From contig JBOGIC010000268.1 in assembly GCA_050744985.1 (NCBI GenBank), positions 1-34,239 of the forward strand: 34,239 bases of DNA. Reading direction: 5' to 3'. The DNA is from Acidimicrobiales bacterium (GTDB lineage Bacteria; Actinomycetota; Acidimicrobiia; Acidimicrobiales; AC-14). Position 1 is the stretch's first letter, and every line of letters begins with the position of its first letter. Below the pieces are notes generated by a model. The model saw only the letters and a program-made list of their open reading frames with translations, ran no database searches and was not told where the DNA came from. This document shows, piece by piece, positions 8,546 through 31,371 of the stretch. Made by a program: the position numbers and the translations under genes.

Positions 8546-8677
8546 CTCACCACCTTCGAGCGCTTGTGCCGTGCCCCGCCTCTGGGACGGTCTGCTGAGC
8601 GGCAGGTGTTCACCTATTCTGGTCGATCGGCGGCACCATCGTCCGCTCCGCGCCGGCGACGAGGGGGGACGTAGCGC
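8546..8677. promoter_or_regulatory. Divergent intergenic/promoter region between the PKS and NRPS genes
   Basis: Gene organisation requires promoters here. A TANNNT-type hexamer TATTCT lies at 8615..8620 (+). GAGGGGGG at 8661..8668 precedes the TTG at 8678. No experimentally defined site was recognised. Confidence 0.4.
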
Positions 8678-11600: not shown

Positions 11601-11779
11601 AGGCGACATTCCTGCGGCAGCCTTACCTCGAGTTGCCGGTCGAGCTTCATGCGGAGCTCTGGCCCGAGGACGATTGTGGGCTGCGTCTAGACATCTCGTT
11701 TCGCCGCGAGGTCGTGCGGACGACGACGGCCGAGACGCTCGCCGAGCGGTTCCTCGAGCACCTCCATGCAAGACCGTAG
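8678..11779 (+). CDS. Non-ribosomal peptide synthetase, A-T-C (adenylation, PCP, C-terminal condensation), about 1033 aa
   Basis: A-domain motifs are LKAGAAYALLDP, FFTSGTTGRAKAV, NGYGPVEST, YRTGDLG, GRADRQLKIRGHRIE and PLTERGKLD. PCP motif is FFDLGGNSL (Ser codon 10379..10381). C-domain motif is HHIAFDG (10922..10942). The start is either TTG 8678 (good SD) or ATG 8720. Confidence 0.9.
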   Translation: MQPDPSWTSGRRCTMPSEGLHETLARTAMAQHDAVALMSRGRPTTYGELDSTADAWASELVRAGVTPAACVPILLPRSAELVIALVAVLKAGAAYALLDPTWPTRRLLEVIADLEAPLLLTRQGSLSLPCLPVWSPPTRAIAAPPDFRPAAVGGVDPCCVFFTSGTTGRAKAVVTPHRATARLFQLDTFARFAHDTVMPLAAPVPWDAFSLELWSVLLNGGTSLIVDEPYLSAQGLRSAVSGYATDTVWLTSSLFNMIVDEDLDAFRGLRQVMTGGERLSASHVGRFLRQHSDIVLINGYGPVESTIFAATHRVTEGDTRRPEGIPLGRPVAGTQVYVLDGSRICAVDETGEICIAGDGLGLRYLGDTVLTDAKFVSVPIDGDVVRIYRTGDLGAWGSDGLLFFRGRADRQLKIRGHRIEAADVERQIERVLPVRSCRVLARPDDAGVPRELAAFCVPTNADDSLEDAGRTLRHELVDSQRPNVIVRVDAFPLTERGKLDEQALLAMLPPIETSLPRGTDGLAEIGRRAGTGEGPQETTDAVAQAFCDVLGRSAVPLEAAFFDLGGNSLDAGRVCTRLSSVLGRPVPLARFYQHPTVKALTSWLEVPFTSSRQGVTRAAGAVPLTAMQLVFLMRHLVDPADRTGHCLLIWAVEGELDRDALQAAITAVHERHAPLRAAYEPDPRPVARLVDVAAPRLAVLPSESSVGAAVRALRNELARHLDPTAGEVWRTALVPAAGGGVTAFGCVVHHIAFDGWSEAVLASDLTGAYNAARGGEQVSPPPPSLARAYEAYSDRTNNEELAFHRARLCAELTGLPSLRWPAGPTGAPRGVGVATVKVSPSVLEGVDVMAAAVGVTRFVVLMSEWARTLAEISGQRDFALGVPVRQRDSTGLEGALGCHMNVLCIRLRDGSLDGGVAAARSVGRLVARALAAQDVPLADVLQFVNPPRTDRPPLYQTLFALQDNPIPHLALAGLQATFLRQPYLELPVELHAELWPEDDCGLRLDISFRREVVRTTTAETLAERFLEHLHARP

Positions 11780-14040: not shown

Positions 14041-14262
14041 GGTGTGCAGTTCAGTCGGGCCGCACCGATCCCCGCCAATCAGCGCGGCCGGCACGGTCGG
14101 CAATCCTTGAGGCCCGCGTGGACATCCCGACGTTCTTCCGCCGGTACGGGAGACGAGCCACCCAGGCGACACGGCCCGCGGTGGTTGTCGTGAGCGCCGA
14201 GATCGGCGGTCGTCGGCTTCCGCGCTCGCCTCGCCGACGGGCGGTGTGTACGCTGTCCTCCC
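14041..14262. promoter_or_regulatory. Divergent promoter region between the two GT4 paralogues
   Basis: 222-nt gap. TACGCT (TANNNT) at 14249..14254 lies 8 nt before the GTG start at 14263, and no SD is present. This is compatible with a leaderless transcript. Confidence 0.35.
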
Positions 14263-15297: not shown

Positions 15298-15419
15298 GTC
15301 TGGTACTGTCGGCCGTGAAACCGGTTTGCGCCTAACGGCTCGGGCAACCCCGTAGCGGATCAGCACGGCTCGACGGAAATGCGAAGGGTCCGTTAGAATC
15401 CGCGCAGCGGAGGAGAGGT

Positions 15420-15485
15420 ATGGCGGCGGCAGTTCGCGGTGCTCGGCATAGAGCGACTCATGCGCGGTCGACGGCACGACGGTGA
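15420..15485 (+). promoter_or_regulatory. Candidate 21-codon upstream ORF/leader peptide (MAAAVRGARHRATHARSTARR)
   Basis: A strong SD, GGAGGAGAGG, lies at 15409..15418 with 6-nt spacing from its GGAGG core to the ATG at 15420. Its TGA (15483..15485) overlaps the GTG (15482..15484) of the long downstream ORF as GTGA. Confidence 0.3.
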
Positions 15486-17431
15486 ACGAGCGCTTATCGG
15501 GTGTGCGGATCGGTCCGGCACCACGGCAGGTCAAGACGGGATTCGCCCGGGGAGCATCCGTATGTGTGGCCATGGACGACGACGACACGAAGTTCGTCGC
15601 CGGAAATCTCCTTGTTGGCGTCCACCAGTCCCGCGCCGGAACAATCTCGCTCCCGGCCGGATGGGCCGAGGCGGGCGTCGAAATTCAAGGCAGTGCGACC
15701 ACCCGGATCATCTTTAAGCAGATTGCCGCCGGCGATCCGGGATCGGTGCCTGTCACGTCGACGGCAGATGGCTTCGAGCAGACCCTGACCGTCATGGAGT
15801 TCGAGGCCGGTCCCGACGGGACAGCGTGGGCGCTCGATCAGGTCTCTTCCCGACAGACGGGCCTGGTGGCGGAGTCCACCGCTTTGTCGACGGGCACCAC
15901 CGAGGTCACGATCTCGCACCCACAGCTCGCAGTCGCCGCCGTAGCCATCCTCGGCGATCCGGGCGGCTGGGACGCCAACTTCACGAATGGCTTCCTGCTT
16001 CGTTCGGCGGTGGCCTCGACCGGGACGGCGGCGGACCGCTCGGCTCACGCCGCGGCCACCCGGATCCTGGACGACCACGCCTGCGTGGAGACAACCATGG
16101 CCTGGACGGTTCGTCGACCGGCCGCCGCCCTGCTGGCGACGTTCCGCCCCACGTCCGCTCCGACCGACCCGATCGTGTTCGCCCGGGCTGGCATCCCGAC
16201 GACCGACACCTTGACGGTGGTTGCGAAGGCGATGGACTCGAACGCGCTCGCCCTCGTCGTTTCGAAGGACGAGCATCTCCTCGACGCCGTCGTTTCGACC
16301 CTGGTCGACGTGGATCCCGAACGGGATCGCTTGGTCACCCTGGCAGTCTCAGGGCTCACCGCGGACACCGAGTACCACTGGGGTATCCGAAGCGGAGGCC
16401 ACACCAGCCCGAGGAAAGGCCGGGTCGTCACCGCCCCGATCGGCGCGAAGACCTTCACGTTCGCGACGTCCGGCTGCGGGGGATACCGCAACAACACCTC
16501 GGGGGACCAGCAGTACCCGATGTCGTCGCACCCGGTATGGGAGGCGATCCTCGGCCACAAGCCGGATTTCTTCGTTCATCTCGGTGACCTGCACTATCAG
16601 GACGTGAAGTCGTCCGTCGAGGACGACCACATCCAGGCCTATATCGATGTCATGTCCTCCTCCAAACAGGGCCGGCTGTGGCGGGTGATCCCCATGGCAC
16701 ACATGTGGGGCGACCACGACTTCTGTGGCGACAACTCCTACGCTGGCTCTGCTGGACGTCTTGCCGCACGCGCGGCTTACCGAAAGGCGACTCCACAGGC
16801 GCTGGCCTGGGCATCCGGAGATAACCCGATCTCGTTTGCTTTCAATTGGGGGTCGCGTGTCCGATTTATCATCCCGGATTGCCGATCGGCTCGCTCTGAC
16901 CCCTTCGCGAAAGACGACGCGTCAAAGACGATGCTCGGGAATCCTGGCAAGGCATGGCTGTTTGGCCAACTTGATGCGGCCGAAGCGGACTCCGAGATCG
17001 CCCTGATCGTTCTGTATTTGGAGGTTCCCTGGATCTCCTCGGCCGGTGACGGCGACGACTGGTCCGTGTGCGATAATGAACGCGTTGAGATCGCAGCCTA
17101 CCTCGATGCCCACGTGACAACACCGATTCTCGGCCTGGGTAGCGACGCCCACATGAACGCTTTCGACGATGGAACGCACAACGTCTGGGGTGCCTTCCCG
17201 GTCCTTCAGGCCGGGGCCCTCGCCCGTGGCGGCTCGATCAAGGGAGGACCGTACAGCGGCGGAGCTTTCCCCAATCTGGGAGGAGAGGGCGACGTGGGCC
17301 AGTTTGCACTTGTGCGGGTCACCGATGACAGCGCGGGAATGAACGTCGAAGTTTCCGGTCGAGCGGTCACTCGGGCTGGCGTCGAGTCGATTCAGTTCAC
17401 GGAGTGGATACTGGTCGCGCCGCATCGATGA
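15482..17431 (+). CDS. PhoD-like/calcineurin-like metallophosphoesterase with an N-terminal extension of about 200 aa of unknown function
   Basis: The C-terminal half reads FTFATSGCGGY...PDFFVHLGDLHYQD...HMWGDHDFCGDNS. A PhoD_N-like beta domain (LTADTEYHWGI) precedes it. No Tat or Sec signal is visible. The start is uncertain (GTG 15482 versus ATG 15572). Confidence 0.6.
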   Translation: MNERLSGVRIGPAPRQVKTGFARGASVCVAMDDDDTKFVAGNLLVGVHQSRAGTISLPAGWAEAGVEIQGSATTRIIFKQIAAGDPGSVPVTSTADGFEQTLTVMEFEAGPDGTAWALDQVSSRQTGLVAESTALSTGTTEVTISHPQLAVAAVAILGDPGGWDANFTNGFLLRSAVASTGTAADRSAHAAATRILDDHACVETTMAWTVRRPAAALLATFRPTSAPTDPIVFARAGIPTTDTLTVVAKAMDSNALALVVSKDEHLLDAVVSTLVDVDPERDRLVTLAVSGLTADTEYHWGIRSGGHTSPRKGRVVTAPIGAKTFTFATSGCGGYRNNTSGDQQYPMSSHPVWEAILGHKPDFFVHLGDLHYQDVKSSVEDDHIQAYIDVMSSSKQGRLWRVIPMAHMWGDHDFCGDNSYAGSAGRLAARAAYRKATPQALAWASGDNPISFAFNWGSRVRFIIPDCRSARSDPFAKDDASKTMLGNPGKAWLFGQLDAAEADSEIALIVLYLEVPWISSAGDGDDWSVCDNERVEIAAYLDAHVTTPILGLGSDAHMNAFDDGTHNVWGAFPVLQAGALARGGSIKGGPYSGGAFPNLGGEGDVGQFALVRVTDDSAGMNVEVSGRAVTRAGVESIQFTEWILVAPHR

Positions 17432-18366
17432 CGCCGTCCTTCAACAAAATCGATATCACGGCGGAACTCGTGTCTCGACTTGTCGCGAAACAGTTCCCGG
17501 CGCTGGCGGGGATGCCGATCGTGCCGGTCGAGCAAGACGGGTGGGACAACTCCACGTTCCGCCTCGGGCCGGACATGTCGGTGCGACTACCGACCGCCGA
17601 CGTTTACGCGATGCAGGTCGACAAGGAGCGCAGGTGGTTGCCGATACTCGCGCGCTTCCTCCCGCGCCTGATTCCCGAACCAATCGCGAAAGGCGCGCCG
17701 AGCGCCGATTTTCCTCGGCCGTGGTCGATCTACCGGTGGCGGGAGGGAGAGCCGTCGACGGTCGAGGGTGTTCGGGATCTTCGGTCCTTTGCCGCTGAGC
17801 TCAGCGAATTTCTTGCCGCTCTCCAGCAGATCGATCCAAGCGGCGGTCCGCCACCGGGTGAGCACAACTTCTTCCGCGGCGCGGCGCTGTACGTCTATGA
17901 CGCCGACGCCAGAGCGAGCATCGCGGCTCTCGACGATGAGATCGATGGCCGGGCCGCGACCGCAGTCTGGGAAGCCGGCCTCGATACAACGTGGCGCGGC
18001 GCTCCGGTCTGGCTTCATGGAGACGTTGCTCCGACCAACCTCCTCGTCGTTGATGGTCACCTGAATGCCGTGATCGATTTCGGATGTTGTGGGGTCGGAG
18101 ACCCCGCGTGCGATCTCATGATCGCGTGGACATTCCTCACGGAAGAGAGCCGAAACGCTTTCCGTTCCGGCCTGCCGTTGGACGAACCGACATGGGCACG
18201 GGGCCGCGCGTGGACGCTCTGGAAGGCCTTGATCACGCTGGCTGACGCGCGCCGGGCGGGCCCGGCCGCGGCGTCGGTTGCCGGGTTGCGCTCCGGGTGG
18301 CGTGTAAGTGCGCGCCAAGTCATCTCGGATGTGATCGCCGAGCACGGCCGATGTCATCGCGATTGA
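17428..18366 (+). CDS. Aminoglycoside/antibiotic phosphotransferase (APH) family kinase, 312 aa
   Basis: Motifs are GWDNSTFRLGPDMSVRLP, WLHGDVAPTNLLV (HGDxxxxN catalytic loop) and IDFGCCGVGDPACD. The ATG at 17428 overlaps the upstream TGA (ATGA at 17428..17431). Confidence 0.85.
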   Translation: MTPSFNKIDITAELVSRLVAKQFPALAGMPIVPVEQDGWDNSTFRLGPDMSVRLPTADVYAMQVDKERRWLPILARFLPRLIPEPIAKGAPSADFPRPWSIYRWREGEPSTVEGVRDLRSFAAELSEFLAALQQIDPSGGPPPGEHNFFRGAALYVYDADARASIAALDDEIDGRAATAVWEAGLDTTWRGAPVWLHGDVAPTNLLVVDGHLNAVIDFGCCGVGDPACDLMIAWTFLTEESRNAFRSGLPLDEPTWARGRAWTLWKALITLADARRAGPAAASVAGLRSGWRVSARQVISDVIAEHGRCHRD

Positions 18367-20015: not shown

Positions 20016-21218
20016 TCAGCCTGTGGTCGGGAGGATGACCCGCTTCGCGATCCGGGCCACCTCCGTGCGGACGGCGTTCCAGTACGGCGCCGAAAAGCCG
20101 GCCACCCCGGGGAGGACTCGGCACTCGGCGACGCTCCCGTCGTCGTAGGGGAGGGCAAGCCCGGCGAGGGGCAGGATCTCGATGCAGGACCGGTCGTCGA
20201 AGAGCGAGACGATGTCTGGGTCGACGATGCAATGTTCGGCGTCGAGAACCACACCTACGACCGCGACGTCGGTCCCGCCGATCGGTCCTCGCACCGTGCC
20301 GACCACACGCCCAGGCCCACCACTGCACCGCCGCAGCTCCCGCTGGAAGTCGAGGAAACGACTGTTCGCCGCGACGTCCCCAACCGCGTGGGCAAGCTCG
20401 ACATCGGGTGCCGGCCACTTCCTCAAGAAGCGCCGGTAGTTGGCCCTCTCGGTCTCCTGGTTGGCCGCCATGTTCCGGGTATGCGGCAGGTGGAGCGCGT
20501 ACACGTCTTCACGAAGCACGATGGGAATGCCGCTGGCCGAGATCCGGTACCCCCACTCGAGGTCGTCCACTCCCCAACCGTGAAAGTCCTCGTCGAAGAA
20601 CAGCTCGCACCGCCGGATAGTCTCCATGGGCAGGGCGATAAGGCCGGTCCACGCGAAGGCCCACGGAATGACGTGGCTTACCGTGAACCGTGGATCGAGC
20701 GGTTCGTCCCCAACGCGCCACAGTTCGTCGAGGAATTTCTGGTAGTGGGCGTAGGGCAGCACCTCGACGGATTCGACATTGCCGTCGTTATTGTTGCCGT
20801 AGCCGAACACTTGGCCGACGACGCACACGTTCTGCCCGAACGAGAAATGGCGGTCGTAGAGGTTCTCCAGCGCCGTGGGCGGCAGGAGCGTATCGGCGTC
20901 CATCTGAACGAGGATCTGGCCAGACGCCTGCCTCATCGCGAGGTTTCTCGCTCGTGGGATCGCGAACTCCTGTGATGACACGACGGACACGAGGTTGATC
21001 AGGTGCGTGAACTCACGGCATGTGGAGATGTACGTGTCCGAATACTCCATGGCGCCGACGACGACTTCGAACTCGGAGCTGTCGAGGGTCTGGTTCGCCA
21101 GTCCCTCGAGAGCGATCCTGAGATTGTCCAAGCGCCGCTTGTATGGAATCGCTACAGTCAGCTTGATGTCGGTGCGCAATGGGGCTCGAGCTTTCGACTC
21201 ACGAAGCTTCCGAGCCAT
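20016..21218 (-). CDS. GT2-family glycosyltransferase with a C-terminal extension of about 120 aa, 400 aa
   Basis: Motifs are LTVAIPYKRRLDNLRIALEGLANQT, VQMDADT (DxD) and FHGWGVDDLEWGYR (galactosyltransferase-C-like motif). Confidence 0.8.
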   Translation of the reverse strand: MARKLRESKARAPLRTDIKLTVAIPYKRRLDNLRIALEGLANQTLDSSEFEVVVGAMEYSDTYISTCREFTHLINLVSVVSSQEFAIPRARNLAMRQASGQILVQMDADTLLPPTALENLYDRHFSFGQNVCVVGQVFGYGNNNDGNVESVEVLPYAHYQKFLDELWRVGDEPLDPRFTVSHVIPWAFAWTGLIALPMETIRRCELFFDEDFHGWGVDDLEWGYRISASGIPIVLREDVYALHLPHTRNMAANQETERANYRRFLRKWPAPDVELAHAVGDVAANSRFLDFQRELRRCSGGPGRVVGTVRGPIGGTDVAVVGVVLDAEHCIVDPDIVSLFDDRSCIEILPLAGLALPYDDGSVAECRVLPGVAGFSAPYWNAVRTEVARIAKRVILPTTG

Positions 21219-21319
21219 CTTGTCGCATGCTGGCGTCCGTGAACAATCTGGCCTCCACGCCGAACGTTGGTTGTCCGACCGTCTGCGGAACGCCCCGGTC
21301 AGGGCATCTCGATCCCAAA

Positions 21320-22129
21320 ATGCAACCCCAATCAGCCGTGACTGAATCCGCCGACTCGTCCAGCCGTCTCGAGGGATTGTGGACGTTCGAGGAAGGTGGG
21401 GGCGACACCGCCCGCGACTCCTCCGGCAACGGCCAGACCCTGAGCGCCCACGGTGACCCCGTATGGGTCGGTGGAGGCACCTTCGGGGGGGCGATCGCCC
21501 TCGACGGGGCGAGCCAATGGCTCACCACTGCCGGCCCCATACTCCGTACCACTGAGAGCTATAGCGTCGCGGCGTGGGTCCGATTCGACACTGGGACCAT
21601 GGACCCTGGCCTGCGTCTCCCGCGTGGGACGTACGCCGTCACGGCAGTCAGCCAGATCGGCCCCTCGAGCGAGGAGCCTACGCACAGTCCTTTCTACCTG
21701 GGCGCCCGAGCGATCAAGCAGACCATGCCTGACGGGACGAGCCCAGCCGCACTGCGATGGTGCCTGACGGTCGCGCCCGTGGACGGGAGCATGACCGGCG
21801 TCCTGGAATGGCAACATGCGACCTCGGCCAAACCGATCGAGGTGTCGGTGTTCGACGAGTGGGTGCTTTTGGTCGGCGTCTGCGACACGGCGACGCGCAC
21901 GACCCAGCTCTACGTGCCTGGGACCGATGACGGGGGGACCGCGACGTTGCCTGAGGAGTGGCCCTTCTGGCAGGCCGAGGGGGGGCTCCAGGTCGGACAG
22001 GCCTTCTGGCTGGGGAATCCGGTCGACCGATGGCCCGGCTCGGTCGGTCCGGTGCGCGCCTACTCGGGCGTCCTGACGGCGGACGACGCCGTGAGCCTGT
22101 ACGAGCAAGGCGCGACGGCGGAGCGCTGA
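21320..22129 (+). CDS. LamG/concanavalin-A-like lectin fold protein, 269 aa
   Basis: Reads LEGLWTFEEGGGDTARDSSGNGQTLSAHGDPVWVGGGTFGGAIALDGASQWL...SYSVAAWVRF...WPGSVGPVRAYSGVLTADD, the typical Laminin_G_3 pattern. Start chosen at ATG 21320 to leave a 101-nt divergent gap. No signal peptide is seen. Confidence 0.7.
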   Translation: MQPQSAVTESADSSSRLEGLWTFEEGGGDTARDSSGNGQTLSAHGDPVWVGGGTFGGAIALDGASQWLTTAGPILRTTESYSVAAWVRFDTGTMDPGLRLPRGTYAVTAVSQIGPSSEEPTHSPFYLGARAIKQTMPDGTSPAALRWCLTVAPVDGSMTGVLEWQHATSAKPIEVSVFDEWVLLVGVCDTATRTTQLYVPGTDDGGTATLPEEWPFWQAEGGLQVGQAFWLGNPVDRWPGSVGPVRAYSGVLTADDAVSLYEQGATAER

Positions 22130-22442: not shown

Positions 22443-23210
22443 TCACCCGCGGGTACCGCCGCTCGAGCGCGTGGCATGAAAGGTCCAATCCAGACTGTCG
22501 GGCCCGGGTTCGTTGTCATCCTGATAGTCAGCCGTCACCGCGGTCACTGCAAACCCGGCCTCGGCGAGGAGCGCTTCGAACGCGTCTCGGCCCCAATACT
22601 GGAGGCAAAACGAGTGCAGCTCCGTGGTCAGCAACTCACCGTCGGCCCACTTTTCGTAGCGGATGAGCATCGTCGTGCGGTTGGCGAGCGGATCGAAACG
22701 GACGTGCACTGGCTGTTGGGTCCAGAGATAGGCGTCACGCCGCCAGTACCGCAGCGGTCCCGGCTCGGTTACGGGACGGGGTGCTGCGACGTCCACAATC
22801 AGGCGCCCTCCCGGAACGAGAGACTCGTGGAAGCACGACAATGCACGCAGGACGGCGTTCCGCCCGTCGAGGTTTCTGATCGACCCGGCAGGAATGATCA
22901 CGGCCTCGTAGGCCTCGGGCTGGACGAACGACTCCATGTCGCCGATGCGCAAGACCGGCTCGAGACCACGCTCGAGACAGTGCTGGCGACAGATCGCGAG
23001 CATTTCAGGCGAATGGTCGAGGCCCTCGACACGGAAGCCCGCCTCGAGCAGTGGGATGAGTACACGCCCCGTACCCGTTGCCGGCTCCAGGATGGTCCGC
23101 CGGACACCCGCTAGGTGGCGTGCGTAGTACTCGACGTCTCCGTTGGAGAATCCGATCGGCAGGTGGAAGTCGTAAACCTCGGCAACGAGCGTGGAGTACG
23201 CCCAGCTCAC
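22443..23210 (-). CDS. Class I SAM-dependent methyltransferase, about 255 aa
   Basis: Motif I is ILEPATGTGRVLIPLLEAGFRVEGLDHSPEML. Start chosen at GTG 23210, preceded by GGAAGGGA. The longer ORF (to 23345) would overlap the SDR gene by 98 nt. Confidence 0.8.
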   Translation of the reverse strand: MSWAYSTLVAEVYDFHLPIGFSNGDVEYYARHLAGVRRTILEPATGTGRVLIPLLEAGFRVEGLDHSPEMLAICRQHCLERGLEPVLRIGDMESFVQPEAYEAVIIPAGSIRNLDGRNAVLRALSCFHESLVPGGRLIVDVAAPRPVTEPGPLRYWRRDAYLWTQQPVHVRFDPLANRTTMLIRYEKWADGELLTTELHSFCLQYWGRDAFEALLAEAGFAVTAVTADYQDDNEPGPDSLDWTFHATRSSGGTRG

Positions 23211-23247
23211 ATGGTCCCTTCCACTGTTTGTCGCGTTCCAGACGCCG

Positions 23248-23985
23248 TCACCACGGTAATGGCCCCTCGTCGCTGAAGAAGCCGCCGGTCGGTCCGTTCT
23301 CAGCCAACGTGGCGAGGTCGACGACGATGCGTGCACCGTCGGCAACCTGGCGGGTGCCGCAGTGCTGGTTCATCGCGGTCGCGGTGTACCCGGGCGACGC
23401 TGAGTTGATCTTGATGTGCCGCATGTCGGGGTCGCCGCGAAATGCAAGCGCGTATTGAACGGTGAGCATGTTCAGGGCAGCCTTGGAGGCCGTGTAAGCG
23501 AGACGACGGGTGGCGTCGCCTGGTATGTCGACTCCTTCGCTGGTCAGCGTCAGTGAGCCCGTTGTGCTGGATACGTTGACGATACGCGGAGCGGGCGACC
23601 GCCGGAGGAGTGGCAGGAGCGCGTGGATCGTCGTCACGACGCCGAAGACGTTCACCTCGAAGATCTGACGCATTTCGGTCGCCGTCGTCGCGGTGGCGGC
23701 GGCGGCGACGAACGTCCCGGCGTTGTTGATGAGGATGTCGAGTCGACCATGGTCGCGTTCCACGTCCTGTGCGAGTCGGGCCACGCTGACGGGGTCAGTG
23801 ACGTCGACCTGTACCGGGCTTACGAGAACGCCGTCGGTGGCCAGGTCATGGACGGCTGCCGCCGCCCGGTCGAGATCGCGGCTTCCCAGGAGAACGGCGA
23901 TACCCAGACGCGCCAATTGGCGAGCCGTTTCATGCCCCAGTCCCTTGTTCGCACCGGTCACGAGCGCCAGCCGGCTCGGAATCAC
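23248..23985 (-). CDS. Short-chain dehydrogenase/reductase (SDR), 245 aa
   Basis: Motifs are ALVTGANKGLG (TGxxxGxG), ILINNAG and YTASKAALN (YxxxK). GTG start. Confidence 0.85.
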   Translation of the reverse strand: MIPSRLALVTGANKGLGHETARQLARLGIAVLLGSRDLDRAAAAVHDLATDGVLVSPVQVDVTDPVSVARLAQDVERDHGRLDILINNAGTFVAAAATATTATEMRQIFEVNVFGVVTTIHALLPLLRRSPAPRIVNVSSTTGSLTLTSEGVDIPGDATRRLAYTASKAALNMLTVQYALAFRGDPDMRHIKINSASPGYTATAMNQHCGTRQVADGARIVVDLATLAENGPTGGFFSDEGPLPW

Positions 23986-23995
23986 GGGGTCGGCC

Positions 23996-25027
23996 TCACT
24001 GCCTCACCGGCGCTGTGGTGTGCGCGAGGATTCGGCGCAGCCACGCGATCCGAGTGCGGTCGGCCGCTCTCGAGATGACGGCGTCGGGTGCCCACTGGTC
24101 GAAGCTGTGGAAACCGCCCGACCACACGTGCAGCTCGGCTTGGCCGCCGTCGTGCCAGATGCTCGTGGCATAGATCACGGCCTCGTCCCGCAACGCCTCG
24201 ACGGAGCCGACGTCGATGAACGCGGGCGGAAGACCGGACAGGTCGGTTGCTCGCGCCGGAGCGGCGTAGCACGAGACATCGCGGGTGCCGCGCCGTGCGC
24301 CCAGCAAGGCCGTCCAACCGGCGCGGTTCGACAAGCCGTCCCAGAGTCCCACCCTCGCCATCTGGAACCCAGACGGTGTCTCACACCTGTCGTCGAGCAT
24401 CGGACACTGAAGCATCTGGCCGATCAGTCCGGGCCCGCCGCGGTCGCGGGCCAACAGCGAGATACCGGCTGCGAGCGCTCCACCGGCACTGTTGCCGCTG
24501 ACGATGATTCGTTCAGCATCGAGGCCGAGCTCGGCGGCGTGCTCGGCCAGCCAGACCAGGCCGGCATAGCAGTCCTCCACCGGAGCAGGGTCCCGATGCT
24601 CCGGCGCGAGGCGGTAGTTCACCGCTACCACGGCGAGCTGTAACTCCTCGGCCCGACCAAGTTCCCCGGCCAGCTCGGTGCTGCGGTTGTTCCCTGCGAC
24701 CATACCGCCGCCGTGCGTGCTGTAGACGACCGGGTGCGGCCCAGCCGTCGCGGTGGGGCGGCAAATGATCATGGGAAGGTCGGGCGCGCCAAGGGGACCT
24801 GGAACGTCCCGCTCCTCGAGATCGAACGCACCTCCGCGTCGGATCTCGTCATCGGACATGCTGAGCTCGGCCGTGCGCCTTCGCCGATCTGGAATGAGCT
24901 CGGCCGTGAGCGGGGTCGGCAGGTCCGCGAGAATGGCGCCGAGCGGCGCTGCCAATTCGGGGTCTAACGGCGGCGGCGGGCCGACCCTGCCGCCGTCGAC
25001 GGGGGAGTGGCGCGTGCGGTCGGTCAC
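23996..25027 (-). CDS. Alpha/beta hydrolase, hormone-sensitive-lipase-like (Abhydrolase_3) esterase, 343 aa
   Basis: Motifs are the HGGG oxyanion motif (YSTHGGGMVAG) and the GNSAGG nucleophile elbow. The GTG start overlaps the upstream stop (GTGA at 25024..25027). Confidence 0.8.
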   Translation of the reverse strand: MTDRTRHSPVDGGRVGPPPPLDPELAAPLGAILADLPTPLTAELIPDRRRRTAELSMSDDEIRRGGAFDLEERDVPGPLGAPDLPMIICRPTATAGPHPVVYSTHGGGMVAGNNRSTELAGELGRAEELQLAVVAVNYRLAPEHRDPAPVEDCYAGLVWLAEHAAELGLDAERIIVSGNSAGGALAAGISLLARDRGGPGLIGQMLQCPMLDDRCETPSGFQMARVGLWDGLSNRAGWTALLGARRGTRDVSCYAAPARATDLSGLPPAFIDVGSVEALRDEAVIYATSIWHDGGQAELHVWSGGFHSFDQWAPDAVISRAADRTRIAWLRRILAHTTAPVRQ

Positions 25028-25977
25028 GGCGTGGCGGGCGCGGGATGAGAGCCCTCGACCGCAACCCGGGCCGCCACGGTGATCGTGTGTAGTTGACGGA
25101 CGCTCGGGTGGCGCAGGTGCAGGCTGCGGTACAGACAGCGCGGGCGGCTCGGATTGTCACAGTAGGACGTACGGCCGTGCGAAATGCGCGTGTTGTCGAA
25201 CACGATCGCCTGTCCGGCTTCGAGGGCGAGCTCCGCGAAATGGGGGCTACCGGGAAGGCTGGCGTGCAAAAGGAACCCTACGCCGCGATACAGGTCCGCC
25301 TCGGCAACGCTAACGGGCACCGACCATCGGTCAGTGGCCGTCACCGAGTACCCGCAGACCAACTGGTGCTCCTGGACGGTGAACGCCGGCCCAGCGTTCA
25401 CATCCCTGCAACCGTTGATGTTCGCCTGGCGAATGAGGGCGCCGGGTGTGGCGAGCGCCGCCGCCGCCGGTGCGTCCACAGCCGCGAGTTGGGCGTAGGC
25501 GGCCGACGCGTTGAACAGTATGGTCTCGCCGCCCTGTGCCGCGGGCGCCTCGCACAGCAACACCGACACCTTTACGAACCCGATCTCCTGCAGCGTGCCG
25601 TCGCAATGGAGCGCCAAGCCCACGGTCCGCTCGAACGACGGATGTCGCGCCGTGGCGACATCGGCTGCTGCCGCGGAGATCCGGGCGACGGTTGCCACGG
25701 GCTTGCCGTTCGTGGCGTACAGCGGAGGGACGAAGGGAGCGCCCAGGTCGAATGATTCGGCGAGCGCCAGCAACGTCTCGGCGGTGACGCGGTGCGGGTC
25801 CAGTTGGATGACGGCAAAGCCATGTCGCTCGTACCGATCGACGACCTCAGCGCGGGCACTTGCGCTGATTGTTCCCGCGTTCGTCGCCGACACCGGATCA
25901 GCGGGGAAGTTCTCGAAGGTGGTGCTCACCGCCGCGGCCGCAGCCATTACCTGATCGAAGCTTACGGCGTTGTGCAT
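25024..25977 (-). CDS. TauD/TfdA-family Fe(II)/2-oxoglutarate-dependent dioxygenase, 317 aa
   Basis: Motifs are LALHCDGT (HxD) and FDNTRISHGRTSY (distal His/Arg). Start chosen at ATG 25977, with GAGGAGG 9 nt upstream. Confidence 0.75.
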   Translation of the reverse strand: MHNAVSFDQVMAAAAAVSTTFENFPADPVSATNAGTISASARAEVVDRYERHGFAVIQLDPHRVTAETLLALAESFDLGAPFVPPLYATNGKPVATVARISAAAADVATARHPSFERTVGLALHCDGTLQEIGFVKVSVLLCEAPAAQGGETILFNASAAYAQLAAVDAPAAAALATPGALIRQANINGCRDVNAGPAFTVQEHQLVCGYSVTATDRWSVPVSVAEADLYRGVGFLLHASLPGSPHFAELALEAGQAIVFDNTRISHGRTSYCDNPSRPRCLYRSLHLRHPSVRQLHTITVAARVAVEGSHPAPATP

Positions 25978-26024
25978 CGTGGGTGACCTCCTCGCGCGAT
26001 CGGCTTTCCTGGGATCTTCATGGC

Positions 26025-27353
26025 TCAGAGCACGTGCTGGACCGCGCGAGGAGCGGAGCACGGATCCGGGCCGACGACGAAGGCATCGTCCGTAAGGGCG
26101 ATCGCCGGCGAGGGATCGCAGCTCGTGAAGTGCAGTTCGGCGAGGGGGTCTCCCCTCGTGACGCGCTCACCAACCCGACGACGAAGGATCAGTCCGGCGG
26201 CGTGGTCGAGTTTGGCGCCCTCGACCATCCTGCCCGCACCGAGGCGCAGAGCGGCCGTCCCGATCGCGCGGGGATCGACGGCTTGGACCCACCCAGACGA
26301 CGTCGCCGTGATCACGTGCCGGTTCGGTGCCGACGGGAGCCGGCCCAGTTCCGTGAGCTGACGTGCGTCGCCCCCTTGGGCCCGCGCCCATCGGAGGAGT
26401 TGATCCCGTGCGGCTCCGCTGTCTATCGCGCGGGCGACGCGCTCGTACGCCGCTCCGGGTGTCAGGTCGGGATCAGCGCTCTGCAGCATGAGGCCGGCAA
26501 CGGCGTCACACACCTCCGACAGCCCCGGAACGTGACCGCCCTCCAAGACGTGGAGCGCCTCTTTGATCTCGAGGGCATTTCCGACGGCGTAGCCGAGGGG
26601 TTGGCTCATGTCGGTGAGCACCGCTCGGCAGGAAAGCCCGAATAGTCCAGCAAGCTTCACCATCGTCTCTGCAAGCTCGGTTGCCGCGGCGGGATCGGGA
26701 ATCAGCGCTCCGGGTCCGGTTTTCACGTCCAGAACAAGACGAGTGGCACCGATCGCAACCTTCTTGCTGATGATGCTGGCGGCGATCAACGGGATGCTCG
26801 CCGCGGTGCCCGTCAGGTCCCGCAGCTCGTACGTCGCCCAGTCACCCGGTACGAACTGGGGTGTGTGGCCGGTGATGACCATTCCGGCCTCACGCGCCAC
26901 GCGGCGAACGTCGGCGACGCCGAGGTCCAGCCGGAGGCCTCGGACACACTCGAGCTTGTCAACGGTTCCGCCGGCATACCCCAGGCCCCGTCCGCTCATC
27001 TTCACGACGGTGAACCCACAGGCTGCCACAACGGGAACGACGACGAGCGTGACCTTGTCGCCGACGCCTCCCGTGCTGTGCTTGTCGACGACCGGGCCGA
27101 TGCCGCTGAGATCCAGCCGTACCCCGCCGGTCACATACGCACCGGTGAGGGCGGCCGTCTCCTCGATGGTCATCCCTTCGCAGGCCACTGTTGCCAGCCA
27201 TGCGGCCATCTGGTAGGCGGGGATGCGGCCGGCCACGAAGTCGAGGACCACACTCCGGATCTCGGCAGGCTCCAACGAGATGCCGGACCGCTTCCGGGTG
27301 ATCGAATCGACGACGCCTACGGACGCAGAATCGGACAGCACCTGCGGGAGCAC
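26025..27353 (-). CDS. Thymidine/pyrimidine-nucleoside phosphorylase family protein, about 442 aa
   Basis: Motifs are DKHSTGGVGDK and MSGRGLGYAGGTVDKLE (family signature). Start chosen at GTG 27353, 7 nt after the aminotransferase stop. The longer ORF to 27431 would overlap that gene. Confidence 0.85.
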   Translation of the reverse strand: MLPQVLSDSASVGVVDSITRKRSGISLEPAEIRSVVLDFVAGRIPAYQMAAWLATVACEGMTIEETAALTGAYVTGGVRLDLSGIGPVVDKHSTGGVGDKVTLVVVPVVAACGFTVVKMSGRGLGYAGGTVDKLECVRGLRLDLGVADVRRVAREAGMVITGHTPQFVPGDWATYELRDLTGTAASIPLIAASIISKKVAIGATRLVLDVKTGPGALIPDPAAATELAETMVKLAGLFGLSCRAVLTDMSQPLGYAVGNALEIKEALHVLEGGHVPGLSEVCDAVAGLMLQSADPDLTPGAAYERVARAIDSGAARDQLLRWARAQGGDARQLTELGRLPSAPNRHVITATSSGWVQAVDPRAIGTAALRLGAGRMVEGAKLDHAAGLILRRRVGERVTRGDPLAELHFTSCDPSPAIALTDDAFVVGPDPCSAPRAVQHVL

Positions 27354-27360
27354 GTCGGCT

Positions 27361-28653
27361 TCAGCCAGCTCGCGCCGCCGCGACGGCGTACTCGATCCGA
27401 TCGGCGATGGCCGTGATGCCCTCGTCGCCAATCGTGAGCGCGGGCACGGCCATCATGGTGTCGCCCAGTTGTCGCAGCAGCAGTCCTTTGTCCTCGGCCC
27501 GGGCAACGGCTCGGCTCGCTGCGTCCGCCGAGCACATCTCGACGACGAGTACCAGCCCGAACCGTCTGACGTCGACAACGTCGCCAATCCCTGCCAGCCC
27601 GCCGAGCCGATCGACCAACAGCCCTCCGAAGTGTTCGGCCCGTTCCGGAAGGCTCTCCTTCTCGAGAACGTCGAGCGTCGCCAGCGCGGCAGCGCAGCCG
27701 ACCGCGTGGCCCGAAGTCGTGTGACCGTATCGGAGGCCACCGATGAGCGGTTCGTTCTCGAAGGTGTCGTGAATGTGCCGCTGCACGGTGACTGCCGCGA
27801 TGGGCACATAGCCCCCGCTCAGGCCCTTGCTCGACACGAGGATGTCCGGTTCGACCGCCTCCCGATGGCAGGCGAACATCCGGCCCGCACGCCCGTACGC
27901 TGTAAAGACCTCGTCGAGGATCAGCAACGCCCCGTATGTATCGCACAGCTCGCGTAGTCCTCGGAGGAAGCCGTACGGCAACACCACACCGCCGCCGACA
28001 TTGAGGAATGGTTCGACGACAACTGCCGAAGGCTGCGCGCTCGCGTCCTCCTCCAACGCATTGCGGAAGGCCTCGAGGAGTAGCGGAAGCGACTCAGGAC
28101 GGCGCAGGTCCCGCGGGCTCACTGGGAGGTCGACGAAGGTCACGGGCAGTGGGCTCTGGAACGGGTGCCCGACCCGAGGCAGTCCCGACAGGCTCCTGCT
28201 GATCACCGTCGAACCGTGGTAGCCGCGCGTGAAGGTCACGACCCTCGACCGCGGCTCGCCGACGTGCGACCAGTACTCGGCAGCGATCAGGACGGCTGCC
28301 TCGATTCCTTCGGATCCACTGTTGACGAACAGTGTCTTCGAAAGCGTCTCCGGCAGGTAGGAGGAGAGCCGTTCGGCGAGGAGTCCGGCCAGTTCGTGGC
28401 TCGCAACGGACAGGTCGACGCCGTGCAGCTGCGATATCTGCTCGCTCACGGCGCGTGCCACGTCCGGATGCGAATACCCGCACGTCGCACCGAGCGACAG
28501 GCCGTCGATGAACTCCCTTCCGTCGACGTCCCAGATCCGGTAGCCGTCCCCGTGCGAGAACATCAGCCGTGCACGATCCGCGCTCAGCGGTGACCACGTG
28601 TGCCACACGTGACGCCGGTCCCGACTCCGGACTGACTCGGGGCTAGCGGTCAT
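27361..28653 (-). CDS. Class III PLP-dependent aminotransferase, 430 aa
   Basis: Motifs are FVNSGSEGIEAA, LILDEVFTAYGRAG and VSSKGLSGGYVPI (Schiff-base Lys context). Confidence 0.85.
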   Translation of the reverse strand: MTASPESVRSRDRRHVWHTWSPLSADRARLMFSHGDGYRIWDVDGREFIDGLSLGATCGYSHPDVARAVSEQISQLHGVDLSVASHELAGLLAERLSSYLPETLSKTLFVNSGSEGIEAAVLIAAEYWSHVGEPRSRVVTFTRGYHGSTVISRSLSGLPRVGHPFQSPLPVTFVDLPVSPRDLRRPESLPLLLEAFRNALEEDASAQPSAVVVEPFLNVGGGVVLPYGFLRGLRELCDTYGALLILDEVFTAYGRAGRMFACHREAVEPDILVSSKGLSGGYVPIAAVTVQRHIHDTFENEPLIGGLRYGHTTSGHAVGCAAALATLDVLEKESLPERAEHFGGLLVDRLGGLAGIGDVVDVRRFGLVLVVEMCSADAASRAVARAEDKGLLLRQLGDTMMAVPALTIGDEGITAIADRIEYAVAAARAG

Positions 28654-29392
28654 CGGGGACGCTTTGACGTTCGAGGGTTTCTCGGAGCAGGGCGTATGGC
28701 GGGTCGGACACGAGGTAGAAGTGATCGCCGGACAGGGTCTGCTGGCAGAACTCGCCGAGGGTCAAGTCGCTCCATCCGCGCTGGTCGGCGTCGGCGTCGG
28801 CATCGCCGACGATCGTCGTCACCGAGCAATGCAAGCGCGGTTCCGGCTCCATCACGTAGGCGTGGAACATGCGCCCGTCGCTGAGAATGTAGGGCAGGAC
28901 AAGTTCCTGGAAGATGGGGTCCGCGGCCAGCTTGGGATCCGTGCCACCGAGGCGGACGAGCTGCTCGATTGTCGTATTGTCGTCATCGGCTACGTCGGGC
29001 GCAGCCGTGCGGACCGGGGACACGCCATCGCGGGAGCCAGAAGCGAAAAGGTGGAACGGTTGAACGCCCCGCGCCTCGAGCGTCCTGGCCGTCTCGAGGG
29101 CGACCACGGCGCCCATGCTGTGCCCGAACAGCGCGATTGGGCGGTCGGCCATCGGCTCGAGGGCACAGGCGATCTCGCCGGCGAGCGCGCGCAGATCCGT
29201 AGGTGGTCGTTCGTCGATGCGCTCAGCGCGGCCGGGGTACCGAACGGCATGTACTTCGACTTCGGGCAAGTGGCGCGCCCATTGGCGAAAGAACGAGGCA
29301 GACCCACCGGCGTGGGGAAAGCAGATGAGGCGCCGCGGCGGCTCCGTACGCGAAACGGTGCACTGCAGCCACGTTGAGTGAGTCGTCGTCAT
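28643..29392 (-). CDS. Type II thioesterase, 249 aa
   Basis: Motifs are LICFPHAGGSASFF and GHSMGAVVA. The ATG overlaps the A-T stop (ATGA at 29389..29392). Its 3' end overlaps the aminotransferase start by 11 nt. Confidence 0.9.
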   Translation of the reverse strand: MTTTHSTWLQCTVSRTEPPRRLICFPHAGGSASFFRQWARHLPEVEVHAVRYPGRAERIDERPPTDLRALAGEIACALEPMADRPIALFGHSMGAVVALETARTLEARGVQPFHLFASGSRDGVSPVRTAAPDVADDDNTTIEQLVRLGGTDPKLAADPIFQELVLPYILSDGRMFHAYVMEPEPRLHCSVTTIVGDADADADQRGWSDLTLGEFCQQTLSGDHFYLVSDPPYALLRETLERQSVPDDR

Positions 29393-31371
29393 GTAGCTGG
29401 CTCTGGTTCGGCCCGCTGGCGCCGTGCCAGGACCGCGCTGGCCCGGGCGTCACTATCCTGCCGCCTCGGCTCAAGGGAATCGACCGGCGCCGATCTGTCA
29501 ATGCGAAGCAGTTCCGCCTGGGTAGACACGGTCGTGTGCCGAAAAAGGGCGACGATGGATGGCCGCGTCCCGGTGTGGCATTCGAGTGCATCCTGGAGCC
29601 GGAACATGGCAAGCGAGTGGCCGCCGAGATCAAAGAAGTTGACGTCGACGGGCACTTCGGACAGGTTGAGCACCTCGGCCCAGGCGGCAGCCACCAGCGC
29701 CGCGGCATCCCGGTCGAAGTCGATGGCGGCCGCGGGCGTGGGATCGGGGCGAGCCACCGAGTCGTCGACGCTGATGCGCAGGAGGTTTCGGTCGACCTTG
29801 CCGCTGACGGTGATCGGAAAACCATCGAGTATGCGAATCAGCGCGGGGACCATGACGTTCGGCAGTCGGTCGCTCAGGTGTCGCCGCAGCGTCTCCGCTG
29901 AGATGACGCACGACGCGACGACGAAGCCGACCAGATCGGTGCCCGCGCTGTTCGCCACGACGACTGCGTCACGAACGCCTCGTACGGCGCGCAACGCCGC
30001 TTCGACCGCATCGAGCTCGACTCGGTGCCCCCGGATTTTGACCTGATGGTCCAAGCGGCCGAGAAAGTCGAGTGTGCCCTCGCGGTTCCAGCGGGCGCGG
30101 TCACCGGTTCGGTACATCCGAGCTCCTGGTTCGCTGGCGAAGGGGTCGTCGACGAAAGCCTGAGCGGTGGCGTCCGGACGACGGAAGTAGCCCCGCGCCA
30201 CCCCCGCGCCGCCGATGAACAGCTCACCCTCGGTACCCCGCGGGACCAGCTGCCCCTCGTCGTCTAGGACGTAGAGCCAGGCCCCCGGCACGGGCGTCCC
30301 GATCGACACCGGCGCCGGAGCGTCGAGGCGCAGGAAGCTGGCCCACACCGTCGCCTCGGTCGGACCGTATTCGTTGACGAGGGTCACTGGCCCCGTGTGA
30401 AGGGCGAAGTGCCGCTCCACCAGCTCCTGGTGCAGCAGCTCTCCGGCGACCGTGACGGTCTCGAGCGACCGCAGGCGCCAGAGACCGAGGCGCTCGGCGG
30501 CGTCGAGCACGAGGCTGTAGAGGGCGGGGACGCAAAGCAGACGGGTGACGCGGTATCGCTCGACGAGCTCAACCAGTCGCGTGGGGTCACGGACCTCATC
30601 GGACGTGGCGACGACGAGGCAGCCCCCCGCAGTCAGGGTGCCCCAGAGGCCAGCGACCGAAGAATCAGACGCCAGAGGGGAGACGAGGAGGAAGACCGGC
30701 GTCCCGCCGTAGACCGAACGGCGTGCCAGCGTCGACGCCGAGAGGTGACGATGTTCGACGACGACACCCTTTGGTTCGCCTGTGCTTCCCGACGTGTAGA
30801 TGATGTATGCCACGTCGTCGGACCGGACGGGAACGGCAGGGAAGTCGGCCGGCGAATGCTCCGTTGTGCTCCCCCGCTCGAACCCGTCGATCACCGCGAC
30901 GATTGGCAGCCCGAGCACACCGAGGCTGTCCTGAACGTGGCGGCTGACAACGACGCCAGCAACGTGCGCGTTGTCGAGCACCTCGGCGATGCGCGCCTGG
31001 GGTTGTCTCTGATCGACCGGTACGTACGCCGCGCCCGCGCGAAGAATGCCAAGGACGGCAGCCACCATCGGCGTTGACGGCTCGGCCAGGATGCCGACGC
31101 GGTCTCCCCGACGCACGCCGTTGACGGCGAGCTGCGCGGCGATGCGAGCGGCCCACGCGTCCAGCGCGCCATAGCTGATCGCGCCGGCAGCGGTCTGGAC
31201 CGCGGTGCGTGTCGGGTTGGAGCGCGCGAACTCGGCTACCAGCTCGTGAACCGGGGCGTGGCCAGTCGGCGGTAGCAGCCTGCCGCGCCCGATGGCGAGC
31301 GGCCCGTCGCAGTCCTCGCTGCCGAGGACCGCCTGGTCGCGCGGAGCGTCAACCGGTTTGCGCGATGCCAA
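29389..31371 (-). CDS. Stand-alone NRPS adenylation-PCP didomain protein, about 660 aa
   Basis: Motifs are LRAGAAYVPVD, YIIYTSGSTGEPKGV, NEYGPTEAT, YRTGDRARW, GRLDHQVKIRGHRVE and PITVSGKVDR. PCP motif is FFDLGGHSL (Ser codon 29614..29616). There is no C or TE domain. The start is a TTG and uncertain. Confidence 0.9.
   Translation of the reverse strand: MASRKPVDAPRDQAVLGSEDCDGPLAIGRGRLLPPTGHAPVHELVAEFARSNPTRTAVQTAAGAISYGALDAWAARIAAQLAVNGVRRGDRVGILAEPSTPMVAAVLGILRAGAAYVPVDQRQPQARIAEVLDNAHVAGVVVSRHVQDSLGVLGLPIVAVIDGFERGSTTEHSPADFPAVPVRSDDVAYIIYTSGSTGEPKGVVVEHRHLSASTLARRSVYGGTPVFLLVSPLASDSSVAGLWGTLTAGGCLVVATSDEVRDPTRLVELVERYRVTRLLCVPALYSLVLDAAERLGLWRLRSLETVTVAGELLHQELVERHFALHTGPVTLVNEYGPTEATVWASFLRLDAPAPVSIGTPVPGAWLYVLDDEGQLVPRGTEGELFIGGAGVARGYFRRPDATAQAFVDDPFASEPGARMYRTGDRARWNREGTLDFLGRLDHQVKIRGHRVELDAVEAALRAVRGVRDAVVVANSAGTDLVGFVVASCVISAETLRRHLSDRLPNVMVPALIRILDGFPITVSGKVDRNLLRISVDDSVARPDPTPAAAIDFDRDAAALVAAAWAEVLNLSEVPVDVNFFDLGGHSLAMFRLQDALECHTGTRPSIVALFRHTTVSTQAELLRIDRSAPVDSLEPRRQDSDARASAVLARRQRAEPEPAT

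Follow-up and report, generated by a model that had tools for sequence, protein, structure and literature searches.

A probable LipL/LipO/LipP-type enzyme cassette in an uncharacterised hybrid nonribosomal peptide synthetase–polyketide synthase gene cluster of an Acidimicrobiales bacterium

A contig of 34,239 nucleotides from an Acidimicrobiales bacterium (GenBank assembly GCA_050744985.1, contig JBOGIC010000268.1, positions 1 to 34,239; this whole stretch is called the window below) contains three consecutive minus-strand genes that encode a class III pyridoxal phosphate (PLP) aminotransferase, a pyrimidine-nucleoside phosphorylase and an Fe(II)/2-oxoglutarate dioxygenase of the TauD family. 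Judging from homology and gene order, we consider it likely that the trio is a functional cassette of the LipL/LipO/LipP type that has been recruited into a different, uncharacterised pathway combining a nonribosomal peptide synthetase (NRPS) with a polyketide synthase (PKS). An analogy with the aminoribosyl cassette of uridine-derived antibiotics had been put forward in the first-pass annotation of this DNA, and both the homology and the synteny described here support it. At the sequence level, the three enzymes can be placed in the LipL and LipO/SapH families and, with less certainty, in the LipP family, and the cluster lies outside the aminoribosyl-glycyluridine antibiotic clusters. Its product is probably a new type of compound.

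In the A-90289 pathway, LipL converts uridine monophosphate (UMP) to uridine-5'-aldehyde, LipO transaminates this aldehyde, LipP exchanges the uracil for phosphate, and LipM and LipN activate and transfer the aminoribose (PMC4902027). Cpz15 likewise produces uridine-5'-aldehyde from UMP (PMC9814697), as does Mur16. The window proteins belong to the same three families as LipL–LipO–LipP of A-90289, the Cpz15 set of caprazamycin and Mur16–Mur20–Mur26 of muraymycin, with which they share 38–58% identity (measured against orthologues defined by genomic context) and intact catalytic residues. The window differs from these three systems in lacking LipK (glycyluridine formation), LipM (UDP activation) and LipN (ribosyl transfer), and in the company that the trio keeps: an A-T protein (adenylation and thiolation domains), a thioesterase, a KS-AT-ACP synthase (ketosynthase, acyltransferase and acyl carrier protein), an A-T-C protein (with an additional condensation domain), a cytochrome P450, a GT2 glycosyltransferase, a LamG protein, an esterase and an APH-family protein.

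The three genes

The genes are closely packed on the minus strand and all three lie where the first-pass annotation had placed them, although two start codons had to be corrected. The aminotransferase of the LipO/SapH type occupies 27361..28653 (Aminotran_3, E = 2e-75). Seven nucleotides past its stop codon, the phosphorylase of the LipP/Mur26 type starts with a GTG at 27353 and extends over 26025..27353 (Glycos_trans_3N, Glycos_transf_3 and PYNP_C, with Pfam run on the 26025–27431 open reading frame). The dioxygenase of the LipL/Mur16/Cpz15 type is found at 25024..25977 (TauD, E = 2e-17, with Pfam run on the 25024–26061 frame). Its start is most likely the ATG at 25977, which is preceded at a distance of 7 nt by a GAGGAGG Shine–Dalgarno sequence, and the 345-residue frame that begins at 26061 is therefore considered to be an over-extension. 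Pfam thus bears out the earlier family calls for all three proteins. The motifs quoted at that stage are also present, DKHSTGGVGDK and SGRGLGYAGGTVDKLE in the phosphorylase and HCD...SHGR in the dioxygenase.

The dioxygenase

In an alignment of 24 family members the facial triad and the arginine are invariant (H125, D127, H268 and R270/R281). About 100 relatives with 40–66% identity were picked up by the first search, none of which carries a name beyond 'TauD/TfdA'. A family profile built from 24 of the relatives was then run against 1.8 billion representative sequences, resulting in 153 matches below 1e-30. Among the proteins matched is P0379 (E = 4e-64), which sits on a metagenomic contig (L008) with the exact gene order of the muraymycin cluster: TauD, a transaldolase resembling serine hydroxymethyltransferase, LipM-like, LipN-like, class III aminotransferase, decarboxylase-like, Aminotran_1_2, C domain and phosphorylase. 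The window dioxygenase aligns with this Mur16-like protein over its full length with 38% identity (E = 8e-51). It is 49–51% identical to the TauD proteins of two further loci that contain both LipM and LipN (L021 and L025, the latter also with LipK). In these comparisons the orthologues of LipL, Cpz15 and Mur16 are set by their gene-cluster context and stand in for LipL, Cpz15 and Mur16 themselves.

No close relative was found among solved structures, the nearest being TmpA (E = 0.008) for the single sequence and DfmD (1e-9) for the family profile. The idea that the TauD protein is an amino-acid β-hydroxylase was rejected, as VioC, AsnO and CmnC (arginine, asparagine and capreomycidine hydroxylases) match the family profile with E values of only 0.2–0.7. 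The enzyme thus groups with the LipL/Mur16/Cpz15 type, as had been anticipated, and not with the amino-acid hydroxylases.

The muraymycin-like contig L008 also contains, at 1–741 on its minus strand and beside the Mur16-like gene, a second LipL-like paralogue that is 31% identical to the window dioxygenase.

The aminotransferase

A search of all solved structures places SapH (PDB entry 7QZJ) far ahead of any other relative of the aminotransferase, with E = 1e-121 and 410 bits compared with 1e-54 for the next match. Other class III enzymes of known structure (BioA, ω-transaminases and GABA transaminases) reach at most 190 bits. The window protein aligns with SapH from end to end with 49% identity, and it is 46–47% identical to the LipO-type enzymes of two muraymycin-like loci. 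These values assign it to the nucleoside-5'-aldehyde group formed by SapH and LipO rather than to the ω-transaminases.

SapH belongs to the pseudouridimycin pathway, where it generates the 5'-amine from pseudouridine-5'-aldehyde; in vitro it also accepts uridine-5'-aldehyde, yielding 5'-amino-5'-deoxyuridine, and it is 37.7% identical to LipO (PMC10127198). Its catalytic lysine is K289, and the side chain of W32 stacks onto the uracil ring (PMC10127198). In the alignment to 7QZJ, the N-terminal W-x-x-W of the SapH type (RDRRH-W-H-x-W) and the lysine of the S-K-G motif are both kept in the window enzyme; given the tag numbering, either of the two tryptophans may correspond to W32. The likeness to the pseudouridimycin system (SapH/PumG with SapB) lies in this full-length similarity, with its conserved Trp region and catalytic Lys, and in the ability of SapH to make 5'-amino-5'-deoxyuridine. 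The remainder of that pathway differs: the aldehyde arises from the free nucleoside through a flavin GMC oxidase, there is no phosphorylase, and the peptide is attached by ATP-grasp amide ligases, compared with a TauD-type oxidant and an NRPS–PKS in the window.

The phosphorylase

The phosphorylase has the complete three-domain architecture of the pyrimidine-nucleoside phosphorylases (PyNP), aligns over its full length with the Geobacillus enzyme (PDB entry 1BRW, 329 bits) and retains intact catalytic phosphate- and base-binding motifs. Relatives were compared among the 120 best of 7996 scored sequences, drawn from 8000 word-sharing candidates. In this set, identity to the phosphorylase of Sphaerisporangium sp. 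SANK 60911, which produces sphaerimicin, is 58%, and to that of the muraymycin producer Streptomyces sp. NRRL 30471 it is 51%. Identities of 51–53% are found with the phosphorylases of two Lip-type loci (L006 and L008).

In the window enzyme (SGRGLGYAGGTVDKLE) the canonical GLGHTGGT loop reads GLGYAGGT, so that a threonine is replaced by alanine. The same replacement is seen in most relatives, in the muraymycin producer's enzyme and in that of the sphaerimicin producer, and methionine takes this position in other Lip-type enzymes. The threonine is kept in Pseudofrankia and in more distant phosphorylases. The change to Ala or Met may be a marker of the use of a 5'-amino substrate. Compared with the housekeeping enzymes Pdp and DeoA, the fold and the catalytic residues are the same, but the window phosphorylase is co-inherited with a biosynthetic operon and has the loop substitution of the LipP type. 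It lacks primary-metabolism synteny and resembles the phosphorylases that the producers of muraymycin and sphaerimicin possess, in line with the doubt raised earlier, from its position, that it has a housekeeping role.

Conserved linkage in related loci

When 185,579 species genomes were scanned with nothing but two motifs of the dioxygenase as seeds, 38 loci were obtained. About 27 of the 38 have homologues of both the aminotransferase and the phosphorylase within 10 kb of the dioxygenase, an association that is far beyond chance. All window proteins, together with LipK, LipM and LipN of L008, were mapped onto these loci, and three types can be distinguished. In type A (∼25 loci, the window type), A-T, thioesterase, aminotransferase, phosphorylase and dioxygenase genes are followed usually by an esterase and a GT2 or LamG gene, with the KS-AT-ACP synthase, the A-T-C protein, the P450 and the APH protein nearby. 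Type B (nine loci, including L006 and L008) contains LipK, LipM and LipN. To it belong L021 from Paractinoplanes rhizophilus and L025 from Micromonospora sp. C95, in which LipM and LipN are followed, in this order, by the aminotransferase, phosphorylase and dioxygenase. In type C (L016 and L031, both from Micromonospora spp.) a methyltransferase gene is followed by those for the aminotransferase, the phosphorylase and the dioxygenase and by two APH genes, and the mapping of window homologues revealed no NRPS or PKS genes in these loci. For the cassette, type C may represent a third kind of use.

The order aminotransferase, phosphorylase, dioxygenase is common to the window, ∼20 window-type loci and the LipM- and LipN-containing loci L021 and L025. 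In bootstrapped neighbour-joining trees, the type A dioxygenases form a clade with those of L021, L025, L028 and L031 in 80% of the replicates, and type A alone is monophyletic in just 14%. All dioxygenases of types A, B and C, with the exception of that of L044, separate from more distant TauD proteins at 81%. The shared gene order and the joint tree therefore indicate that the trio is a unit common to the known pathway and to the window-type pathway.

The partners with which this unit works in the known pathway are missing here, as had already been noticed for LipM and LipK. With the L008 orthologues as queries, tblastn gave no match to LipK, LipM or LipN in the 34 kb window (for LipK, none with E below 0.01), which confirms the earlier observation and extends it to LipN. 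None of the three was found within ±10 kb in the ∼25 window-type loci, although the same mapping recovers them in the Lip-type loci. The GT2, GT4 and GT8 proteins and the other window proteins were considered as a hidden LipM or LipN and rejected: no similarity was detected, and the GT2 protein gave only generic GT-A matches. Conversely, the PKS, P450, GT2, LamG and esterase partners were not seen in the Lip-type loci examined, the one exception being a PKS match in L006, which is more distant.

Operon and cluster

The trio is embedded in a run of closely packed minus-strand genes from 31371 down to ∼22443, for which every assignment is backed by Pfam. The first gene of the operon encodes a stand-alone A-T protein (29389..31371; AMP-binding and PP-binding), and this is followed by a stand-alone thioesterase (28643..29392; Pfam Thioesterase, with the GHSMG and GDHF motifs checked). 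Downstream of the dioxygenase are an esterase/amidase of the hormone-sensitive-lipase type (23996..25027; Abhydrolase_3 in Pfam, resembling the LipP1-type hormone-sensitive lipases of NCBIfam and chloramphenicol hydrolase), a short-chain dehydrogenase that may act as a ketoreductase in trans (23248..23985; adh_short/KR) and an S-adenosylmethionine-dependent methyltransferase (22443..23345, with an uncertain start codon). The last of these resembles amine N-methyltransferases, the NCBIfam likeness being to daptide-type and glycine/sarcosine N-methyltransferases. The A-T and thioesterase genes overlap by 4 nt, the thioesterase stop codon lies 11 nt inside the aminotransferase gene and overlaps its start, and the dioxygenase and esterase genes again overlap by 4 nt. 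The junctions from the A-T gene to the esterase gene show translational coupling.

Much of this operon is conserved. The A-T gene is located directly upstream of the thioesterase in ∼20 loci, and the thioesterase is kept in type A loci. The esterase, usually right after the dioxygenase, is the most conserved protein of the cluster (52–75% identity). Homologues of the dehydrogenase share 56–67% identity in L009, L010, L015 and L033, with a weaker one (26%) adjoining the A-T gene in L047. The methyltransferase is found beside the trio in L016 and L031.

The remaining assembly-line genes lie further to the left. A single-module type I PKS with KS-AT-ACP architecture (5549..8560, minus strand) has an active KS cysteine and a malonyl-type RAFHS motif but no KR (ketoreductase) domain according to Pfam, and is kept in related loci at 39–64% identity. 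The NRPS A-T-C protein (8678..11779, plus strand) has an intact HHIAFDG motif in its C domain (Pfam) and is retained at 33–55% identity across type A loci. The Stachelhaus-type specificity code of its A domain, derived by hand from the motif positions, is tentatively Val-like; the PDB matches of both A domains give no clear substrate call. A cytochrome P450 (11780..12967, plus strand; Pfam p450) is kept in L002, L004, L009, L013, L034, L038 and L047. The APH-family phosphotransferase (17404..18366, plus strand; Pfam APH), found in many type A and type C loci and on the plasmid of Candidatus Megaera polyxenophila described below, could be either a self-resistance protein or a biosynthetic kinase. 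A GT2-family glycosyltransferase (20016..21218, minus strand; Pfam Glycos_transf_2) is a core member with 45–67% identity across type A loci and 54% to the Megaera gene. Next to it, a LamG/ConA-like domain protein (21179..22129, plus strand; Pfam Laminin_G_3) is kept in type A loci.

Near the left end, the plus-strand gene 1715..3718 encodes a ribosomal protection GTPase of the Otr(A)/Tet type, which is likely to confer self-resistance (NCBIfam tet_protect; its score of 733 bits is just below the cut-off of 775). In nine other type A loci, an Otr(A)-like homologue is located no more than 10 kb from the dioxygenase, a co-conservation that suggests the ribosome, and not MraY, as the target of the product. 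For the known MraY clusters, by contrast, an MraY-directed self-resistance would be expected. A GH20-like protein (3749..5542, minus strand) is recognised through its Glyco_hydro_20b domain in Pfam (E = 6e-7). This domain-2 match is the only significant one, with no significant match to the GH20 catalytic domain in the 3749–5542 protein. GH20 genes occur in the Nocardia takedensis locus (L002) and on the Megaera plasmid as well, although no orthology between them and the window gene could be detected.

Between the P450 and APH genes, the stretch 13021–17431 contains two GT4 glycosyltransferases and a PhoD-like phosphatase without counterparts in related loci. They might work with the adjoining APH gene as a shuttle (phosphorylation/dephosphorylation or glycosylation); an insertion unrelated to the cluster is also conceivable. 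At its left edge, the cluster carries two plus-strand fragments, one of a group II intron maturase (332–859; GIIM, E = 6e-18) and one, only weakly matched, of an ISL3-type transposase (852–1571; E = 5e-4). A NiFe hydrogenase gene forms the right edge of the window, which has a G+C content of 63–70%.

Spread and gene fusions

The cassette in its window-type context is present in no fewer than 25 genomes at species level and in about 100 metagenomic protein clusters. Besides many actinomycetes, its carriers include Paracaedibacteraceae, Rickettsiaceae, Rickettsiella and further assemblies of Pseudomonadota (including L004, L020, L034 and L038). A search of a plasmid collection identified twelve orthologues with 35–63% identity on plasmid pPCS201 of Candidatus Megaera polyxenophila (L047; AP017965.1, 97208–138005; 29% G+C). 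This set includes the GT2 protein, the esterase, the synthase, a dioxygenase–LamG fusion, the P450, the APH protein, the A-T protein, the thioesterase, the aminotransferase, the phosphorylase and the A-T-C protein. LipK, LipM and LipN are absent from the annotated cluster stretch of 40.8 kb. Megaera is a protist symbiont, and the 12-gene core is conserved over the whole distance between an actinomycete with 66% G+C and this Rickettsiaceae plasmid with 29% G+C. Its presence on this plasmid and in the Pseudomonadota assemblies argues for cross-phylum horizontal transfer of the whole cluster. The 'aminoglycoside' and 'polyketide' clusters of Rickettsia buchneri were looked at as possible counterparts and are unrelated to the window cluster.

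Two kinds of gene fusion tie proteins of the cluster together functionally. Fusion of the thioesterase to the aminotransferase is seen in two lineages that are far apart, once in an actinomycete (P0202) and once on a contig that also carries divergent dioxygenase and phosphorylase homologues (P0169). In Rickettsiaceae, the dioxygenase is fused to the LamG domain (P0343 and the Megaera protein MPCS_01607, L047 19941–21635).

Proposed pathway and alternatives

From homology, the dioxygenase would oxidatively dephosphorylate UMP to uridine-5'-aldehyde and phosphate, the PLP aminotransferase would convert this aldehyde to 5'-amino-5'-deoxyuridine, and the phosphorylase would cleave the latter with phosphate to uracil and 5-amino-5-deoxy-α-D-ribose-1-phosphate. 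As LipK, LipM and LipN are all missing, a glycyluridine core would not be made and the sugar phosphate would not be activated in the known way. The steps beyond this point are speculative. A three-module line consisting of A-T-C (Val-like), A-T and KS-AT-ACP with a trans-acting dehydrogenase might build a short chain, which could then be joined to the 5-amine of the amino-pentose, or to that of the aminonucleoside before the uracil is lost. The joining enzyme might be the thioesterase or the C domain. The earlier suggestion that the amine serves as the nucleophile for the 'terminal' C domain, for which pacidamycin assembly offers a precedent, has to be set against a simpler role, since this domain may just form the next module with the stand-alone A-T protein. 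For attaching the amine, the thioesterase is no worse a candidate, and we favour it because it is fused to the aminotransferase in two lineages. The P450, methyltransferase, GT2/LamG, esterase and APH proteins might tailor the product or protect the producer.

Taken to its full extent, this scheme leads to a proposal that we put forward only tentatively, as it is possible but, taken as a whole, less likely than not. The cluster might direct the synthesis of a new class of natural products in which 5-amino-5-deoxyribose, or an iminosugar or aminonucleoside derived from it, is amide-linked through its amine to a short valine-containing peptide–polyketide, with no nucleotide-sugar activation and with the thioesterase forming the link. 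The compound would act as an antibiotic directed at the ribosome, with the Tet/Otr(A)-type protein as the safeguard. By horizontal transfer it would have moved between actinomycetes of the soil and plasmids carried by intracellular symbionts of the Rickettsiales and Legionellales, in which it might form the basis of a defensive symbiosis.

Several observations weigh against the assignment of the trio and its pathway. The phosphorylase is 57% identical to Pseudofrankia enzymes that are found in an ordinary chromosomal, non-cluster context, and in an unbootstrapped neighbour-joining tree these nest among the cluster-borne ones, so that the specialisation of the phosphorylase is not proven by sequence alone. 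Identity to the proven UMP dioxygenases is judged only through orthologues defined by context, and all trees are of the neighbour-joining type. Given the second paralogue on the muraymycin-like contig, the LipL-like subfamily may hold more than one substrate specificity and may include enzymes for other substrates. The later steps are conjecture, since there is no known route for 5-amino-5-deoxyribose-1-phosphate that dispenses with LipM and LipN.

This last point also bears on a different outcome, in which the pathway would end at the aminonucleoside. In pacidamycin biosynthesis, a free-standing C domain uses an aminonucleoside as the nucleophile. The window may be likened to pathways of the pacidamycin and jawsamycin type, in which carrier-bound acyl or peptidyl groups N-acylate a 5'-amino (deoxy)uridine, and LipL homologues have been reported in the jawsamycin cluster (PMC9814697). 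Here, 5'-amino-5'-deoxyuridine or a base-exchanged analogue would be N-acylated as in pacidamycin, jawsamycin and pseudouridimycin, and the phosphorylase, rather than supplying a free amino-sugar phosphate, would serve in base exchange (transglycosylation), by which another heterocycle would be placed on the 5-aminoribosyl unit, or in precursor supply. Pyrimidine-nucleoside phosphorylases are reversible, which is compatible with such a role, and a small lactam heterocycle could be the product of the A-T, KS-AT-ACP and thioesterase proteins. The absence of LipM and LipN fits as well, as does the fact that SapH, the closest solved relative of the aminotransferase, operates in a pathway that keeps the nucleoside (PMC10127198). 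We nevertheless regard this outcome as unlikely. The phosphorylase is co-conserved, in the LipO–LipP–LipL order of clusters in which its role is the removal of uracil, it has the loop substitution of the LipP type, and no candidate pathway to an alternative base was identified. The pacidamycin and jawsamycin pathways themselves keep the base, have no nucleoside phosphorylase and organise their assembly enzymes in a manner unrelated to the window set.

It is also conceivable that the resemblance to the Lip enzymes is coincidental. The TauD protein would then hydroxylate an amino acid loaded on the A-T protein, with release by the thioesterase; cassettes of this composition for β-hydroxy amino acids are well known. 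The aminotransferase would act on a polyketide β-keto group or aldehyde, for which the fusions with the thioesterase could be read as a sign that it works on the released chain, and the phosphorylase would be a housekeeping DeoA/Pdp, in keeping with its 57% identity to the non-cluster Pseudofrankia enzymes. We consider this very improbable. The profile of the dioxygenase family gives E values of 0.2–0.7 for VioC, AsnO and CmnC compared with 4e-64 for the Mur16-like enzyme, and the aminotransferase scores 410 bits with SapH compared with at most 190 bits for other solved class III enzymes. The phosphorylase is co-inherited with both partners across phyla, even on a reduced Rickettsiaceae plasmid, and the identical three-gene block stands beside LipM and LipN in L021 and L025. 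The homology of the trio to the enzymes of ordinary MraY-inhibitor clusters (caprazamycin, A-90289, muraymycin and sphaerimicin) would also be explained if the window were simply part of such a cluster, with the remaining genes outside it. This can hardly be the case: LipK, LipM and LipN are found neither in the 34 kb, nor within ±10 kb in the ∼25 related loci, nor in the 40.8 kb Megaera stretch, and the PKS, P450, GT2, LamG and esterase genes are foreign to the Lip-type loci examined apart from the distant PKS in L006.

Significance

In the openly accessible literature we found no published description of the window-type cluster family, whether searching for the gene combination, for aminoribosyl units outside the MraY inhibitors or for ribosomal protection in nucleoside clusters. 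One paper that mentions 5-amino-5-deoxyribose deals with a sulfotransferase and has no bearing on the cluster. Papers on the genus Megaera/Megaira mention only unnamed NRPS/PKS regions.

To our knowledge, the reactions of LipL, LipO and LipP have so far been known only from MraY-targeting uridine antibiotics. The window-type clusters would represent a second and much more widespread use of this cassette, in which the assembly line differs and the target is likely to differ as well, being the ribosome. For natural-product chemists they provide a well-defined orphan cluster, and they raise the enzymological question of how 5-amino-5-deoxyribose-1-phosphate may be used without LipM and LipN. For Candidatus Megaera/Megaira, the product of the cluster would be a candidate small molecule for the defensive role that has been proposed for this symbiont.

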